Source: Octopus sinensis (Eukaryota). Taken from it: DNA of 64,000 nt. The position numbers were made by a program, and so were the translations under genes. Shown here piece by piece: positions 4,075-52,378 of the stretch (the first letter of the stretch is position 1; every line of letters starts with the position of its first letter). The DNA lies in NCBI RefSeq assembly GCF_006345805.1, contig NC_043018.1, positions 20,460,001 to 20,524,000 on the forward strand, written 5' to 3'. A model generated the notes under the pieces. It worked only from the letters and a program-made list of their open reading frames with translations. It searched no databases and had not been told where the DNA came from.

Positions 4075-5185
4075 GGCACAAGGCCAGCAATTTGGAGAGG
4101 AGTGGGGTGAGGTGGGGAACCAGTTTCAGAATGTAAAGACAGAACAAATGCCACCAAGAATTCTGTCTGACATGCTAACAAATTTGCTACTTCACTGCCT
4201 TGAATATTGGTTTCAAATTTTGGCACAAGGCCAGCACTTTCATGGAGGAGTGGGAAGTCGATTACATGGACGTCCCCCTCCCCCATTGTTCAACAGGAAC
4301 TTATTTTATCAACCTCAAAAAGATGAAAGACAAAACAGATCTAGGTGGAATTTGAACTCAGAACATATAGACAGACGAAATGTCGCTAAGCATTTTGCCC
4401 AGAATGCTAACGACTCTGCCAGCTTGCTGCCTTCGCTGCCTTGAATATTAATAATTGTTTCTAATTTTAGCACAAGGCCACCAATTCTGAGGGAAGGCAT
4501 AAGTCAAGTAGGTCAACACTTGTGCTCAACAGGTACTTATTTTATTGGCTCCAGAAAGATGACTGGGAAATCTGACCTTGGTGGCATTTCAATTCAGAAT
4601 GCAAAGAGTCTGAGAAAATGCTGCTAAGCATTTTGTTTGGTATGGTAACAATTCTGCCAACTCACCGAAAGGAAGAAAGACAAAGTCAACCAACCTCAGC
4701 AGAATTTGAACCCAGAACATAAGGACAAGCGAAATACCCAGTGAGCTAATTCTACCAACTCACTTAAATAATATCGGTTTCAAATTTTGGCACGAGGCCA
4801 GCAATTTCAGAAGAGGGGACAAGTCAATTACATCGAACCCCAGTGTTCAACTGGTACTTACTTCTAATCGACCGTGAAAAGAGAAAAGGCAAAGTCGACT
4901 CTGGCAGCATTTGAACTCAGAACATAAAGTCCGATGAAATGCCGCTAAGCACTTTTCCTGGAGTGGTAAACGATTCGGCCAGCTCGTCACCTTGACACCT
5001 AAAATAATAATAATAATCCTTTCTACTATAGGCACAAGGCCTGAAACTTGATTGGGGGAAGGGGACAGCCGATTACATCAACCCCAGTGTTTCACTAGTC
5101 CTTATTTTATCAACCCCAAAAGGATGAAAGACAAAGTCAACCTCAAAAGAATTTGAGCCCAGAACATAAAAACAAGAGAAATACT
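4075..5185 (-). mobile_element. Head-to-tail cluster of about 5-6 decayed SINE family B copies
   Basis: Repeated GGCACAAGGCC..CCCCAGT..AACTGGTACTTA..GATGAAAG.CAAAGTC.ACC..GAATTTGAACTCAGAAC motifs. Confidence 0.85.
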
Positions 5186-26865: not shown

Positions 26866-27238
26866 TTATATAATAGGGTTCAGCAAAAAAAAAAGGATGT
26901 TGGGTGGGGGGGGACAAACACAGACACACAAACATACACACACACACATATATATATATACATATACATGACAGGCTTCTTTCAGTTTCCATCTACCAAA
27001 TCCACTCACAAGGCTTTGGTCAGCCCGAGGATATAGTAGAAGACACTTGCCTAAGGTGTCACGCAGTGGGACTGAACCCGGAATCATGTGGTTGGTAAGC
27101 AAGCTACTTACCACACAGCCACCCATGTACCTATATAAAACATCCTCATTAACGTTTTATACATCAGACCTTAAACCTCAATATCTGAGCATTTCCTCAC
27201 ATCCGCATGGTAGAAAGTTTAAAGTTTTTTGTCTTTGT

Positions 27239-27304
27239 ATAGAGTCTGACGAGCTGTTCACAAGACTTTGGCTTTCATGGATACGAAACGTTTGGTAACT
27301 CTAT
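27239..27304 (+). ncRNA. Type-I hammerhead ribozyme, canonical core, perfect 7-bp stem I
   Basis: ATAGAGT CTGACGA G..(long stem II TGTTCA/TGGATA)..C GAAA C GTTTG GTA ACTCTAT; stem I extends via AAAGTTTAAA (27214) / TTTAAACTTT (27313). Confidence 0.85.
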
Positions 27305-27923
27305 GACTGGAATTTAAACTTTTGTTTTATATATATATATATATATATGCACATGGCCTTGTGGTTAGAGCAGCAGATTCGTGGTCGAGGCAAGGTTGTT
27401 TATGGATGACCACTAATCACCCATGCATACCACCAAAGTTACCCAAGGGAAAGGCAAAGGCCGATATGCAGCTGAGTGAACTGGAGTAACATGAAATAAA
27501 GTGTCTTGCTCAAGAACACAACACACAGCCCGGCCCAGGAATTGAACTCACTACCTCATGATTGTGAGCCCAACACTCTAACCACTGAGCCATGTGCCTT
27601 CATATATCATCATCATTATTTAGCGTCCGCTTTCCATGCTAGCATGGGTTGGACAGTTCAACTGGGGTCTGGGAAGCCAGAAGGCTGCATCAGGCCCATT
27701 CTGATCTGGCAGTGTTTCTACGGCTGGATGCCCTTCCTAACGCCAACCACTCCCTGAGTGTAGTGGGTGCTTTTTACGTGCCACCAGCACGGGTGTAAAT
27801 ATATATATATACATACACGCATACACAATTATACGCACAAATATAAACCCATACTTAAATACATATATATATATATATATATACACACACATGCAGATAT
27901 ATGTACACACATACACACATATA

Positions 27924-28616: not shown

Positions 28617-29152
28617 GATTGGCTGTATATGCAAGCGTAAGCAATGATTTATGAGCCGAGATGGGACAGAGTGATTTATATAGCACGGGACATGAGAAAA
28701 GAGAACAACAGTTGATGAGAAAGAAGAAGAAGAAGAGAGGAAATATATAGGACAGAGAGTGAGAGAGAGAGAGGGGGAGGGAGAGAGGGGGAGGGAGAGG
28801 GGGAGGGGAGGGAGGAGGGACAAACAGACAGACAGAGAAGAAATCAATATTACTGATGTTTGTCTGGCTAATGTTGCACATGACTTGGTTAAAGGATTTC
28901 TCAAGGAGATGGACAGTTTTTATCTCTTGTCTATTACAGAAAACCAAAAAAGAACTTTGGTTGTGAAGAAGCGGCACCAGAATCAAGCACGAAATAGTAT
29001 TCTATTAAACAACAAATCTATTATGGTAAATGGAATCATGCAAAAGAGAGAGAGAGAGAGAGAGAGAAAAAAGGATGAGGTAACTTGTATCAGCTTTGTT
29101 TCAGAATTGTATTTGGGAAGTGAAAGAAGTTTATTCATTCATTCATCAAAAC

Positions 29153-30044
29153 CAGGGGTTCTCAACCAGAGTTCACACGGTCCTGGAGGGTCCATATGTT
29201 TTTTTTTGGGGGGGGGGGCACGCAATAATATTGCAAATTGAAGAAAAAAATCAAAATCAAAATCGATCAACATCAATGGAAATTGCAGCTGTGATACCAG
29301 TGCCGGTGGCACGTAAGAGAACCATCCGAATGTGGCCGTTGCCAGCGCCGCCCCGACTGGCCTCCGTGCCGGTGGCACGTAAAAAGCACCATCCGATTGT
29401 GGCCGTTGCCAGCCTCATCTGGCACCTGTGCAGGTGGCACGTAAAAAGCACCCACTACACTCACGGAGTGGTTGGCATTAGGAAAGGCATCCAGCTGTAG
29501 AAACACTGCCAGATCAGACTGGGCCTGGCGCAGCCTTCTGGCTTCCCAGACCCTGGTTGAACCGTCCAACCCATGCTAGTATGGAAAACGGACGTTAAAC
29601 GATGATGATGATGATGAAGATTCACCGTAGCATTTTAAGGGACCCTGAAACAATTTTGCTCTAGATGTATGTATTAGTATGTATTGCAAGACACAGGTTT
29701 CTTTCTCTAACATTTTACATAGATCGACCTACACAAGGGAGTGTGCGAAAAACAAAATAGGGATTTCGAAAGACATTTCTATAAAACTAGTTTACAAACA
29801 TCAAGTGGCTTTAGGGATCCACCAGAATAAAATAGTAATCAAAGGGGTCTACAGATAAAAAAAACGGTCAAGAACCATGTTTTACTTAGTTCAGCCTACA
29901 CAAGGGAGCATGTGAGAAACAAAATAGGGATTTTGAAAGAAGTTTCTTTAAGACTAATTTTTAAAAATTGAATGGCTAAGAGGGTTCACAAGAATAAAAC
30001 ATTAATCAAGGGGTTCATAGGTAAAGAATGGTTGGGAACCCCTG
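29153..30044. mobile_element. hAT-like MITE containing a family C insertion (29250-29616) and an internal duplication
   Basis: TIRs CAGGGGTTCTCAACC / GGTTGGGAACCCCTG; 8-bp flanks ATCAAAAC / ATTTAAAC. Confidence 0.72.
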
Positions 30045-35458: not shown

Positions 35459-36086
35459 TCATTTATTGCCAAACTAGCAAACTAGCATGGCAGCCCAGAG
35501 AAATAAGACGAATGCTGCTGTTGATTAGCTCCAAAAGGCTATTGCCTCTAGCTAGCTATGTGACGCACGAACCTGCGTCCATAAACCTTTGCTGCTGTAT
35601 CTCTCCTTCAGAGAGAAATTAGAAATTATAACATTTCTATTTATATATATACATACACACGAGTGCATGTGCACATGTGCACACACATACACACACACAC
35701 ACATGCACACATATGTATATATATCAACACCCACACATATACAGCCCACTTTCTGTTCTGGTTTGAACCCATTATCATTCAATGGTGCTACTGCTATCTT
35801 TCAAGAAAGCATGAATGAATTACAACAGCAGCAGTAGTAGTAGTAGTAGCACCACCACTCAGCTGAACCAGTCTTGTGACTAGTTTTTGCTGGTTACATT
35901 CTGACTTCAATAGTACTGGTGCCCTGTCAAAAAGAGAAACAACAAAAAAAAAACAAAAACCCCACTTAATACACTCTGTATAGTAGTTAGCATTAGGCAG
36001 GGCATCCAGCCATAGAAACCATGGCAAAGCAGACACTGGAGCCTAGCACCTTTCTCCAACCTAATTGGGGGCTGTCAAACCATCTG

Positions 36087-36788
36087 ACCCATACCTATTT
36101 CTTTATTACCCACAAGGGGCTAAACACAGAGAGGACAAACAAGGACAGACATAAGTTATTAAGTCGATTACATCGACCCCCAGTGCGTAACTGGTACTTA
36201 ATTTATTGACCCCGAAAGGATGAAAGGCAAAGTCGACCTCGGCGGAATTTGAACTCAGAACGTAACGGCAGACGAAATACGGCTATGCATTTCGCCCGGC
36301 GTGCTAACGTTTCTGCCGACCCATACCTATTTCTTTATTACCCACAAGGGGCTAAACACAGAGAGGACAAACAAGGACAGACATAAGTTATTAAGTCGAT
36401 TACATCGACCCCAGTGCGTAACTGGTACTTAATTTATCGGCCCCGAAAGGACGAAAGGCAAAGTCGACCTCGGCGGAATTTGAACTCAGAACGTAATGGC
36501 AGACGAAATACGGCTACGCATTTCGCCCGGTGTGCTAACGTTTCTGCCGACCCATACCTATTTCTTTATTACCCACAAGGGGCTAAACACAGAGGGGACA
36601 AACAAGGACAGACATAAGTTATTAAGTCGATTACATCGACCCCAGTGCGTAACTGGTACTTAATTTATCGACCCCGAAAGGATGAAAAGCAAAGTTGACC
36701 TCGGCGGAATTTGAACTCATAACGTAACGGCAGACGAAATACGGCTACGCATTTCGCCCGGCGTGCTAACGTTTCTGCCGACCCATAC
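36087..36788 (-). mobile_element. Tandem triplet of SINE family B (about 231-bp unit)
   Basis: GACCCATAC at 36087, 36318, 36549 and 36780 separates three near-identical units. Confidence 0.93.
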
Positions 36789-39234
36789 CAGCATGGAAGA
36801 CAGATGTATGATGATGATGATGTATTTCCTGAGTAATGATTAGAAAAAAAATTTATTATTTTTTTTTTTTTAAATAGATAGTTTTACTGCAACCATAAAG
36901 AACAGGAAGAAAAGAAAAAAGAAACATGTAACGTTATATAGCAATTCAAACCTTGCAACTGGCGCCAACAGTCCTGAAATACTTCTGTCACCTGGCACTA
37001 CAGTCTAATTAATGGGGATATATTATTAATGAAATAAAGTAACAAACAAAATAAACGTAACAACAACTGTCCCAGAATTGATTCCGTGTCAGGAGTAGTT
37101 TTGAGATTTACTGCTGTAACGCTGGAGATTGATACTTTGTTTGAATCATCAGTCGTGTTTAAACAAGAATTTGGATTCTCAATTGTACTTTTGGAAACCA
37201 GTTACCCTCTCGTGGCTATATTCCTATGCCTGCGTGGAGTCAAGAGATGGGAACTTCTCAGCTGGAGAGACATGTACCCAAGGGAATGAATGAATGAACA
37301 CAAGCACCATAATAATAAGGCTTTCAAACTATGGCACAGGGCCAACAGTTTTTGAGGGGAGGGGGAAGTCCATTACATCAACCCCCAGTACTAGACTGGT
37401 ATTTGTTTTATCAATTCCAAAAGGATGAAAGGCAGAGTCAACCTTGACGGAGTTTCGGATGCTTTACATCCAATCATTATTCTTCATTTAGGGATAGCAG
37501 TAAACGCAATAGCACAGGGCTTAGTAAATTGTTGTGGCATCTTAAAGACAAGAATAAGGATTTTAAGTTAGATTGGTTCATCCTGTCCATCTCTTTCCCT
37601 TATGACAAGGGCAAAGGATTCTGTAACATTTGCAACTCTGAACTCTTCCATATTCTCTTCTCTAAGAATCACCTTGTTAACACACTTATTGAGTGATCTT
37701 ACAAATGGAAAACTGGCAGAAACATACCTTTAGCTCATATAAGTGATTTATACCAGTCTGTATAGTTTGAACATTTAGTTCACCTTGCACTTTACTTCAA
37801 TAGAGAAATCTACTTCCAAGCCTTTGAACATTTTTTCAGCCAACATATCCCTCTATATTTCTCCATTTCTCCTTATTATTTCTTTACCCCTTCTCTTTCT
37901 ATGATCTACTGTTGACGTCAGATCTACTAATGGTTATTTTTTTAAATACTTAATAGCGTTCTGTTTATCATCTATGCAGTAATCAAAATTGTTATAATGT
38001 CTTGTTGTTGAGATGAGTTCCCTTTCTTTCCTGATGAGAAGATTACATTATTTTACATTGTTTATTCTTTTGGAATAAAACCAATGTTGTCTTCAAAACA
38101 TATGTCGAAAGTAAAAGAATTTGAATAACATCTGCGTTCAACTCCATTTATTTACTTATATATAATATATATATATTTTTTCTCAACATATGGCCCTTAA
38201 ACACCCTTCCAGCAGCCCCTGACAGTCTTCCCTCTATATATAATATAATAATTTTTTCCTTGATTAACAGGAGTCTTACTTTTTTGGTGCAGCCCCATAA
38301 AAAAATTCAGGTTCCGAATCAACCCCGAATATTAAAAACTGAGAATCATTGGAATGGACTTTTCTAAAGGCACCACTGACACCAAAATATTGGTTTCTAA
38401 AATAGGCAACAGGCCAGGAATTTGACAGGCAAAAGAAAGTCGATTATGTGACAGTCCAGTACTTGACTGGTACTTTATTTTATCGATCATAAAAGGACGA
38501 AGGGGCAAAGTTCACCTTGGCAAGATTTGAAATCTGAATGTTAAAATGTCAGGCTGAATACCAAGAGGCACATTATCCAACATTCTTAACTTATAAGCAA
38601 TGAAATATCTATTTATTTGGTACAAGACCAAAACTATGGGGGTCAAGAGGACAGGTGACAGATTAGTTGATCATAACCCAAGTACGTAACTGGTACTTAT
38701 TTAATCCCAATAAAAAATTACCATCACAACAAAAATATTCTCATGTCAGAAGTCATCATTATAATTTGTTCTTAACAACAAAAACAAAATCTGACTGGCT
38801 TCACTATCATCTCAATAACTATTAATATCATTATTATTATTAGTATTATCATCATCACTGACAACAGACACCAACTGTTTACTATCATCATTTATTATCA
38901 TTTCAGTCAGTACTCTATATCATACATTGTAATCATCTCTGACACTTCGCAATAAGCTTTATCTCCTTCATCATCATTATCATCACAATTATAGCCATGA
39001 CTACCATCATCATCATCATCATCATTTATCATCATGACTAGAATTCTCATTACTATCATCGCTGTCATCATCACCACGATAATTGTCATCATTGACCACA
39101 AACCAATGTGTTTAGTGCATTGAAGCAGCCAGATACGACAAGGATACAAGAGTATTTTATGGGGATGGCACAGGATGGCTACAGCAAGGAAGAGGGGAGA
39201 GCGTCAGAATGGCAATGGGAAGAGCGACAATAAA

Positions 39235-39592
39235 TTAATGGGGACAGCAAGTGAAAGTTAATGGGGACAGCAAGTGAAAGTTAATGGGGACAGCTACTGA
39301 AAGTTAATGGGGACAGCAAGTGAAAGTTAATGGGGACAGCTACTGAAAGTTAATGGGGACAGCAAGTGAAAGTTAATGGGGACAGCAAGTGAAAGTTAAT
39401 GGGGACAGCAAGTGAAAGTTAATGGGGACAGCCACTGAAAGTTAATGGGAACAGCCACTGAAAGTTAATGGGAACAACCACTGAAAGTTAATGGGGACAG
39501 CCACTGAAAGTTAATGGGGACAGCAACTGAAAGTTAATGAGGACAGCCACTGAAAGTTAATGGGGACAGCCACTGAAAGTTAATGGGGACAG
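39235..39592. repeat. 23-bp minisatellite TTAATGGGGACAGC(A/C/T)A(G/C)TGAAAG, about 15 copies
   Basis: Direct reading; two degenerate units resume at about 39739-39786 after a family B fragment. Confidence 0.95.
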
Positions 39593-45260: not shown

Positions 45261-45584
45261 ACGATTCCCAGACCGGGCGTTGTGAGTGTTTATTGAGTGA
45301 AAACACCTAAAGCTCCACAAGGCTCCGGCAGGGGATGGTGGTGATCCCTGCTGTACTCTTTCACCACAACTTTCTCTCACTCTTACTTCCTGTTTCTGTT
45401 GTACCTGTATTTCAAGGGGCCGGCCTTGTCACTCTCTGTGTCACGCTGAATATCCCCGAGAACTACGTTAAGGGTACACGTGTCTGTGGTGTGCTCAGCC
45501 ACTTACATGTTAATTTCACGAGCAGGCTGTTCCGTTGATCGGATCAACCGGAACCCTCGCCGTCGTAACCGACGGAGTGCTTCC
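45261..45584 (+). mobile_element. SINE family D, 5'-truncated, in (TA)n
   Basis: Homology to family D. Confidence 0.9.
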
Positions 45585-46015
45585 ATATATATATACACAC
45601 ACACATATGTATTAGGCGAAGGCACATGGCCTAGTGGTAAGGTGTATTGCACTCGTAATCATGGTGGTGGTGGTGGTGGTGATGTTGATGATGGTGGTGG
45701 TAGTCTCTTAAAATCCAAGAAAGATGATTCTGCAATTTCCAACAAAACAGCCAGCACAAATGATTTGTTTAAAGTGATCAAATACGTGTGCCATACATTA
45801 AACTCACTCTCCATTCGAATCAACATTACCTGCACAGGTGCACAGGTGTGCCATGCGTCAGATGTCAAAGTGCTTGCAAAGCAGCATGAGATTAAGAACA
45901 GAATGCATCACCCAGTTTGGGAACTGAAACCATGACCTTGCAATCGGGAGTACAACATCCTAACCACTAGGCCATATATCCTACACACACACACACACAG
46001 CTGTTTGGTTTCAAC

Positions 46016-50868: not shown

Positions 50869-51653
50869 GTACATATATATAATGACTTGGAGGAGTGAGT
50901 AGGTAGTGGATAGAAGCGCAGAATGGAAGAAGGCTAAACCCGCAGGAACCATACGGAAGGAGACCAGGATGGATGGTAAGAATTAATGTTACCATCTGAT
51001 ATATCTAACCATTCCTTGTACTTGGTTTGCGATTTTCAACACCAATACTTCAACCACCAAGCTTAACTGTTACAACAATTAAGCAATAATGACAATAATA
51101 ATGGTAATAATTGGCAATAATTGGCCGTGGGGGGTGAGGTTTTGTTTACTCAGGGAGGAGGAAAAAAAAAAACTTTTAAAAGGAAACGACTAACTGTTGG
51201 AATAAAGGATAGGATTATATAGCAAAGAAGGAAATTATAAAGGGGAAAATAATGGTAAAGAAAGGGGTATTAGATTTGGTAAGAGTGTATATAGTGAGGT
51301 GTGTAGAGTTGTGTATAGAACAGGGTGTTTATTGTTAAGTTTGGAGATATAAACATACATTACAGGTAAATAGGTTTAGTGAGAGAGAGAGAGGGGGGTA
51401 AGGAAAGAGTTCAGTGCATCGCGGTCATAAAGTCGGGGATTGGTTTTAGCAAGAGTTTGTATTGCAAACTGATCCCTTATTTCGTAACCAGTTGTTACAT
51501 ATATATATATATATATACTAAACTACATACAAAAAAAAAACCAGGCAAAAATATAAGTCTGGCGATTACGTCGGATATCAGCGACCGAAGATGAGGAAAT
51601 GAGGGAAACGGGAATGAAGAAAACGACGACGAACGCCTCGTAAAGTCTCTTAC

Positions 51654-51770
51654 CTTCAACCACAGACACTGGAACGTAAAATTTTCTCCAGTGGAAAAGG
51701 CCTTAGATCAATTTGCTAAGGACAAAACCAAACATAGTAACAGCCATTACTGTTATTCCATGACGTCACA
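51654..51770 (-). promoter_or_regulatory. Candidate first exon and promoter of a minus-strand transcript
   Basis: Consensus donor AAG|GTAAGAG at 51654/51653, palindromic CRE TGACGTCA at 51761-51768, locally CpG-rich unique sequence 51560-51680. Confidence 0.3.
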
Positions 51771-51950
51771 AACACTTTGGGAAGAAGACGAAAATAATGA
51801 GTTCATAGGAGTTACCTCCCTTATTTTCTCCTCGCTTTTTTTAATTTATTTATTTTTTTTTTTTCTCCTCTCTCCAACATTTCAACACCTTTCCTTGCTT
51901 TCTCCCCCCCCACTCAACGACTTCTCTTTGATTTCGTTCCCGAATTCATT

Positions 51951-52378
51951 TACTCTTTTACTCTTTTTACTTGTTTCAGTCATTTTGACTGCGGCCATGC
52001 TGGAGCACCGCCTTTTTAGTCGAGCAACTCGACCCCGGGACTTATTCTTTTTTTTGTAAGCCCAGTACTTATTCTATCGGTCTCTTTTGCCGAACCACTA
52101 AAGTGACGGGGACGTAAACACACCAGCATCGGTTGTCAAGCAATGCTAGGGGAACAAACATAGACACACAAACATATTCACACACACTTATATATATATA
52201 TATATACATATATACGACAGGCTTCTTTCAGTTTCCGTCTACCAAATCCACTCACAAAGCATTGGTCGGCCCGGGGCTATAGCAGAAGACACTTGCCCAA
52301 GATGCCACGCAGTGGGACTGAACCCGGAACCATGTGATTGGTTAGCAAGCTACTTACCAAACAGCCATTCCTGCGCCT
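51951..52378 (-). mobile_element. SINE family A, full length
   Basis: Homology to family A. Confidence 0.92.

Follow-up and report, generated by a model that had tools for sequence, protein, structure and literature searches.

Type I hammerhead ribozymes of animals are among the closest described counterparts of the motif analysed here. In the account given in PMC4209133, helix I of the canonical metazoan type I motif has 6 bp and helix II has 4 bp, and conserved loop bases join the two. In two full-length structures the key contact is formed by an unpaired U1.7 with an adenine of loop II (PMC11875169), and a canonical coral motif cuts at about 0.8/min (PMC7229834). A motif with a short helix III can cut as a monomer; an axolotl motif with a 2-bp helix III reaches 22% in an hour (PMC7229834). 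The triplet GUA occurs in natural hammerheads (PMC1636495).

The hammerheads of Penelope-like elements (PLEs) possess a long helix II and cleave weakly in vitro; minimal versions show no cleavage as monomers and low cleavage as dimers (PMC4209133). According to a review, PLE motifs usually lack tertiary contacts (PMC6155905). The Hydra clade of PLEs, which includes Hydra-1_Obim, is defined in section 11 of PMC8557442, and this definition was used for the motif comparison below.

Here, we focus on a hammerhead motif in a 64-kb window (the whole stretch of DNA that was analysed). The preferred reading, to which we assign a probability of about 80%, is that it is a type I hammerhead in a solitary 195-base terminal-repeat remnant of an old PLE, likely of the Hydra clade, and that this copy is predicted to misfold and to cut slowly or not at all.

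The hammerhead motif in the window

A sequence-only reading had described 27214-27322 as a canonical hammerhead with a perfect stem I, an intact core and a distal pairing that leaves an internal loop. Direct reading bears out most of these elements (Table 1). ATAGAGT and ACTCTAT form seven Watson-Crick pairs, to which an eighth, U-G pair can be added; CTGACGA, GAAA and GTA are all present, none of the 11 fixed core positions is altered, the triplet is intact, and the predicted cut was numbered correctly. The distal strands, AAAGTTTAAA and TTTAAACTTT, make ten perfect pairs. The motif has the type I core (CUGANGA, GAAA and NUH) and three helices round it with helix I open, in which 7 + 7 + 2 pairs are possible; its assignment to type I is supported.

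Table 1. Features of the hammerhead motif and its surroundings, in window coordinates.
Feature	Position	Strand	Basis
5'-truncated pLTR (terminal-repeat) remnant; the parent Penelope-like element has Hydra-clade motifs	27135..27330	+	BLAST
Distal helix, 5' strand	27214..27223	+	sequence; pair probability 0.41-0.84 with core held open
Middle stem I extension, 5' strand (UUUU.GUC), pairs with 27305-27312	27226..27233	+	predicted: GUC/GAC 0.74-0.77, UUUU/GGAA about 0.2
5-nt bulge, rest of the claimed internal loop	27234..27238	+	predicted; unconserved in families C and D
Stem I, 5' strand	27239..27245	+	sequence
Core C3-A9 (CUGACGA), G5 = 27248, G8 = 27251	27246..27252	+	sequence
Long stem II: G10.1-C11.1, bulged C27254, six pairs, damaged outer hairpin	27253..27284	+	copy comparison
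Core G12-A15.1 (GAAA)	27285..27288	+	sequence
Stem III: 2 pairs and 5-nt loop	27288..27296	+	third family pair broken by C27290G
GUA triplet, predicted cut after 27297	27295..27297	+	sequence
Stem I, 3' strand, U1.7 = 27304	27298..27304	+	sequence; U1.7 copy counts
Distal helix, 3' strand	27313..27322	+	sequence
3'-junction (TA)n tract, 32 nt beyond the cut; short 3' end of the family	27329..27348	.	end mapping

The motif had been called the best candidate for an active ribozyme here; it is the best-preserved hammerhead motif in the window and the sole exact-core one with real stems. A scan of the 64-kb window for an exact core with at least 5 pairs in stem I and at least 5 in stem II returned it as the only match; when one core mismatch was allowed, four further matches appeared, none with a sign of being real. 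An equally strict motif turned up a single time among 150 simulated windows of 64 kb (order-3 Markov, both strands). The search of Rfam gave no family at the gathering score and no hammerhead match up to E = 10, a miss that is no argument against the motif.

The label canonical does not fit the fold, since canonical metazoan helix II has 4 bp and a short loop, whereas stem II here is bulged and about 13 bp long in the family. Three features had been overlooked. In stem II of the window copy a C is bulged after the first pair, two pairs are G-U and C faces A in a mismatch, and stem III has only an A-U and a C-G pair closed by a 5-nt loop. The claimed 15 x 8 internal loop appears to be mostly paired, as seven extra pairs (GUC/GAC and UUUU/GGAA) are possible between stem I and the distal helix (-13.4 kcal/mol vs -8.7 kcal/mol for the fold first proposed). 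What stands of it is the 5-nt bulge, which differs between families.

A 176-nt contig of depth 3.3 from run X1, which we guess to be an RNA run, covers 27143-27318 with four differences; these include T27247C and A27265G and may be errors at that depth, and the contigs show neither ends nor strand.

The remnant and its parent element

BLAST of the remnant places the motif in a dispersed repeat family; L059 matches 27135-27331 (75%) and L032 matches 27145-27329 (84%). In the 64-kb window, BLAST found neither a second piece of the family nor a partner arm. Forty places were scored among 401 candidates in G000, and these are 78-87% identical. The family is old, because the nearest of 59 other copies is 87.5% identical to the window copy and a 26-base stretch of the remnant has 16 exact matches.

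Several repeats lie around the remnant. A very high-copy SINE-like repeat (about 26970-27125) stands directly upstream of it, joined via a short TA stretch. Further away are two tandem arrays, one of 3 copies x 231 bp (36086-36789, 96%) and one of 15.6 copies x 23 bp (39235-39592, 94%), and a 57-residue fragment on the + strand (37472-37642) that is 44% identical to the endonuclease end of a sister ORF. Degenerate CTGATGA and GAAA boxes without clear stems lie downstream of this fragment, near 38031-38110.

Longer copies of the family continue into endonuclease (EN) and reverse transcriptase (RT) sequence, and several loci carry a second copy in opposite orientation. L059 is a full-length element. 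Its 420-bp direct repeats (1672-2080 and 4449-4866, 80% alike) flank a broken RT-EN frame and each hold a hammerhead motif, the upstream one without its 5' core box; L032, L033 and L031 are colinear with it. At the level of the family, the colinear broken frames of L059, L033 and L032 give a single RT ORF with a C-terminal GIY-YIG EN. Direct-repeat pLTRs with a hammerhead, inverted truncated arms and a one-sided tail are those of an EN+ PLE.

One alternative is that the repeat does not terminate a coding element but is a non-coding retrozyme, with short tandem hammerhead units and circular RNA, given that the window copy has no ORF and that retrozymes carry type I hammerheads (PMC7229834). This is extremely improbable: the homology runs into EN and RT in the longer copies, with L059, L032 and L033 refuting it for the family, the 5' ends of copies are staggered, and the window holds no tandem array of the repeat. 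The motif belongs to a coding element, unlike those of the retrozymes described in PMC7229834, which are short tandem units.

Within the coding PLEs, the motifs make a place in the Hydra clade likely. As in the description of that clade (PMC8557442), an RT is followed by a GIY-YIG-type EN; RWK and DKT occur in L059 and L033, and the CxCX5C linker, CxxC and CxH, with no CCHH, in L031, L033 and L032. The unit is shorter than 3 kb (2777 bp in L059), the targets are (TA)n, the inverted truncated arms have a one-sided tail, and the hammerhead lies near the 3' end with a long stem II and a short stem III. No CxxC was found between GIY and YIG in the element frames. Two features differ from that description, namely a tail of about 57 nt, not 30-40, and an in-frame insert of about 180 residues between GIY and YIG. 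The Nematis clade, our initial guess, was dropped, as the motifs fit the Hydra-clade definition instead.

The RT and GIY-YIG identity of the element proteins is proposed from motifs and Atlas features. An intact sister ORF gave no Pfam or PDB match, and the element proteins likewise gave no significant match; in the Atlas, the intact ORF groups with clusters that carry the HTH_animal, GIY-YIG and RVT_1 families. The literature search found no paper on the family of the window copy, which Repbase and Dfam, lying outside that search, may hold. Two short family motifs had no match in the supplement of PMC8557442, where motifs split across columns or lines would escape such a search. As far as these searches reach, the family is an unlisted one of an already known kind of element.

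The EN insert can be followed across copies. The spacing from the GIY-like to the YIG-like half is 24 nt in a young sister family and about 380-615 nt in most measured copies of the sister families A, B and D (defined below). A Thr/Asp-rich, partly repeated in-frame stretch of about 180 residues lies between the two halves in L032 (7826-8386, +) and also in L031, L033, L057 and L059; L054 has a different, Ala/Thr/Gln-rich stretch at this site. In 35 aligned pieces, some from overlapping loci, the ORF frame of the insert holds 16 stops in 3761 codons and none is shared, whereas the other two frames have 6 and 16 shared stops. It is therefore likely that the parent element encoded the Thr/Asp-rich insert. 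A literature search aimed at an insert splitting GIY from YIG found no paper.

Other hammerhead families were met during the survey. The young sister family is of Hydra type and has a 717-aa open frame and a hammerhead (L050, 2296-4446 (+) and 4642-4712; also L051-L053, L061 and L131), with the core CCGAAGA, that is with C at position 4, in 6/6 loci where it was seen. A hammerhead almost identical to the Hydra-1_Obim entry in the PMC8557442 supplement lies downstream of a Hydra-type ORF in L055 (2879, -) and L060 (2955, -); that entry matches these loci and not the window motif, so that it is a different family. The match also suggests a host similar to an octopus. Another hammerhead family with a palindromic loop III occurs as an inverted pair in L056 (968 (+) and 380 (-)) and in L051 (2365, -).

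The 3' ends of copies were mapped after excluding loci L110-L138, because there the downstream DNA query had matched an unrelated inserted repeat. Among 68 copies that span the cut site, 33 stop at 20-37 nt beyond it, most of them beside TA or CA repeats, and 34 end at +77 or beyond, where the tail stops near +90 and the alignment then enters microsatellite; the remaining one is the reference itself. The window copy has the short 3' end and runs into (TA)n. Ten places combine a short arm with a long one on the opposite strand, and L008 has two long arms. The cut site itself was considered as the element's end and rejected: 0 of the 7 alignments ending between -25 and +20 nt enter a TA tract there. 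The end of a copy lies about 32 or about 90 nt past the cut, and therefore the inserted DNA spans the cut site. From this we infer that the RNA template was likely uncut at that site or re-ligated.

Sister families and the proposed tertiary contact

The copies fall into four sister families, with 27, 29, 20 and 20 copies in A, B, C and D, and three unassigned copies were excluded; 6/20 loci of C and 16/20 of D have a PLE protein match. Structure conservation in paralogs, the absence of which would have spoken against the sequence-only reading, is found in stems I and II. In family D, three of the inner six stem I pairs are changed on both sides. In stem II, a U-A pair is replaced by C-G in 12/20 copies of C and 14/20 of D, and a C-G pair by U-A in 20/20 of C. 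These compensatory changes between sister families, our one line of structural evidence, indicate that the parent elements kept the hammerhead fold and that it was selected in them.

Stem III has three pairs in all four family majorities, with a varying loop; the third pair is C-G in 25/27, 26/29, 17/20 and 14/20 copies of A, B, C and D. The majority stem II of A and B consists of one pair, a bulge and then 12 pairs, and it is similarly long in C and D. The triplet of family C is GUC, with C in 20/20 copies.

Within A and B, covariation was not above shuffles by any measure (20 copies hand-picked from 60; 4 pairs vs 3.3 +/- 1.5; 210/500), and RNAalifold run per family gave almost no structure, the copies being decayed. 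Conservation across copies is 494/526 for the non-CpG core, 767/820 for stem I and 652/695 for unpaired positions, and only 79/116 for the CpG-linked G8 and G12. For the family as a whole the inserted copies thus decayed evenly, with no sign of selection.

The families resemble the metazoan PLE hammerheads of PMC4209133 in many respects. In both, pLTRs hold the motifs, which mostly stand singly in truncated elements and sometimes form opposite-strand pairs; helix II has 7-8 bp or more and starts with G10.1-C11.1; an unpaired base lies near its 5' end; and variation between copies is great. Families A-D differ from that description in having a 3-pair helix III with a non-palindromic 3-nt loop and a helix I of 6-7 bp with long extensions. 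The bulge follows G10.1 in A-C, and D has an extra base between 9 and 10.1.

With the fast type I hammerheads, as they are portrayed in PMC6155905, PMC7229834 and PMC11875169 (Schistosoma Sm-alpha, coral and mussel retrozymes), the families share the core and topology, a conserved 6-bp stem I, U1.7 and an interrupted extension. They have no 4-bp stem II with a short loop and their stem I interruption is unconserved: A has a 5-nt bulge, B a 9 x 3 loop, and both C and D an inserted hairpin. A helix similar to the distal one closes the majority fold of A and B.

The sequence-only reading had proposed that the stem I loop touches loop II and makes the ribozyme fast. Such a contact is unlikely, because loop II lies about 12-13 bp from the core and the stem I interruption varies between families. 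Conserved contact bases of loops 1 and 2, as in the canonical motif, were not found; loop 1 differs among A-D in size and sequence and loop 2 in sequence. It is quite unlikely that the window copy itself cuts fast as a monomer with the help of a contact from its extended stem I to stem II or loop II. Its core and triplet are intact, and each of the four families is predicted to have a long closing helix. The 6-bp helix I is followed by U1.7, which is kept in 26/27, 27/29, 19/20 and 19/20 copies of A-D while the facing base varies (A in A and B; U in C and D, where the seventh stem I pair is U-U), and it is this base that makes the contact in the two structures of PMC11875169. The loop II distance of 12-13 bp, not 4, and the unconserved interruption nevertheless stand against it, as do the pairing of U1.7 to A in the window copy, its 2-pair stem III, and unconstrained pair probabilities of 0.036 in stem I and 0.001 in stem III.

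One may ask the same of the lineage. Its hammerhead may be a variant that cuts as a monomer, in which the 3-pair helix III is stable, helix II has at least 12 pairs and speed comes from a U1.7 contact inside helix II and not from loop II, and the window copy would be a damaged version; we regard this reading as unlikely. The candidate partner would be the adenine at 27281, which is kept in 25/27, 28/29, 20/20 and 20/20 copies of A-D; it adjoins a G-U pair in A-C and is bulged in D.

Predicted folding of the window copy and implications

Scoring covered the 60 sufficiently complete copies among 86 distinct ones; these 60 were picked by similarity and make up a part of the family. The core is intact in 13 of them, so the intact core of the window copy is not rare. 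Four changes affect its helices. In stem III, C27290G breaks the third pair, and G at this position occurs in 0/59 other copies. In stem II, C-G becomes U-G (27258), G-C becomes A-C (27265) and C-G becomes C-A (27277); the letters involved are in the minority among the other copies (6/59, 5/59 and 6/59).

The energy cost of the active fold was compared among core-intact copies. Nearest-neighbour energies ignore the non-canonical core pairs and Mg2+, and therefore only the ranking is meaningful. Five of the 13 core-intact copies break a pair required by the folding test; the window copy ranks sixth of the eight scorable ones. In this ranking its active fold lies 8.4 kcal/mol above the ensemble (L071, 2.4; L022, 2.8). 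In the comparison with family majorities it lies 8.7 kcal/mol above, and the majorities of A, B, C and D cost 2.4, 2.4, 5.3 and 2.0 kcal/mol. Reverting any one of the four changes lowers the cost to 6.4-7.7 kcal/mol and reverting all four to 2.4, vs 8.7. Unconstrained folding of the window sequence gave z = -0.45 and no hammerhead fold. In the lowest-energy fold 27240-27247 pair with 27263-27270, which buries stem I and C3-U4. The modelling thus predicts a poor yield of the active form. The same decoy helix, one pair weaker, is possible in the family sequence (lowest-energy fold of L002), and it could have been an off-state of the parent ribozyme.

Two other fates of the window copy were weighed. 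Exaptation, in which the host kept the copy as a working ribozyme and hence its core is intact, would fit the retention of both CpG-prone catalytic guanines, as against 79/116 cells in other copies. It is highly improbable, as an intact core occurs in 13/60 copies, all four helix changes are destabilising and no host gene was identified around the copy: 0 of 7 candidate window frames reached the Pfam cut-off. Three open frames on the + strand (28696-29241, 51595-52059 and 45450-45935) have protein-like stretches and may be host exons. Cutting as a double hammerhead with a second copy is the model published for metazoan PLE hammerheads (PMC4209133), and for the family a helix III self-duplex is predicted at -5.1 kcal/mol vs +0.4 as a hairpin. 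That the window copy cuts only in this way is very unlikely, given that the 64-kb window holds no second family copy, that its own duplex reaches only -1.9, and that a new palindrome at 27286-27293 (-5.3) would bury A13-A15.1.

Based on these comparisons, the preferred reading, a misfolding type I hammerhead in a PLE remnant, can be put as the following sequence of steps. The parent element carried the motif in both direct repeats flanking its RT-EN frame. Following the published model, cleavage after GUA would free a unit-length RNA from a read-through transcript. The enzymes of the element would then likely paste 5'-truncated cDNA into (TA)n tracts, a truncation and a target that the copies show, with a template that probably spanned the cut site. 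After insertion, copies of the family decayed without visible selection. The window copy kept its core, lost one stem III pair and had three stem II pairs weakened, and these changes are predicted to favour the decoy helix that sequesters stem I and C3-U4.

As a single locus the window copy carries little weight, since such remnants are common and already published. The family is of wider interest, as it is still not clear what hammerheads do in Penelope elements that bear an endonuclease (PMC8557442). It is unusual for a once-active endonuclease to have GIY and YIG split by a long in-frame insert. Whether the template is uncut or circular is a question on which the two fixed 3' ends past the cut site bear. 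The four sister families form a natural variant set for asking whether cleavage by these hammerheads is monomeric and what takes the place of the loop-loop contact.
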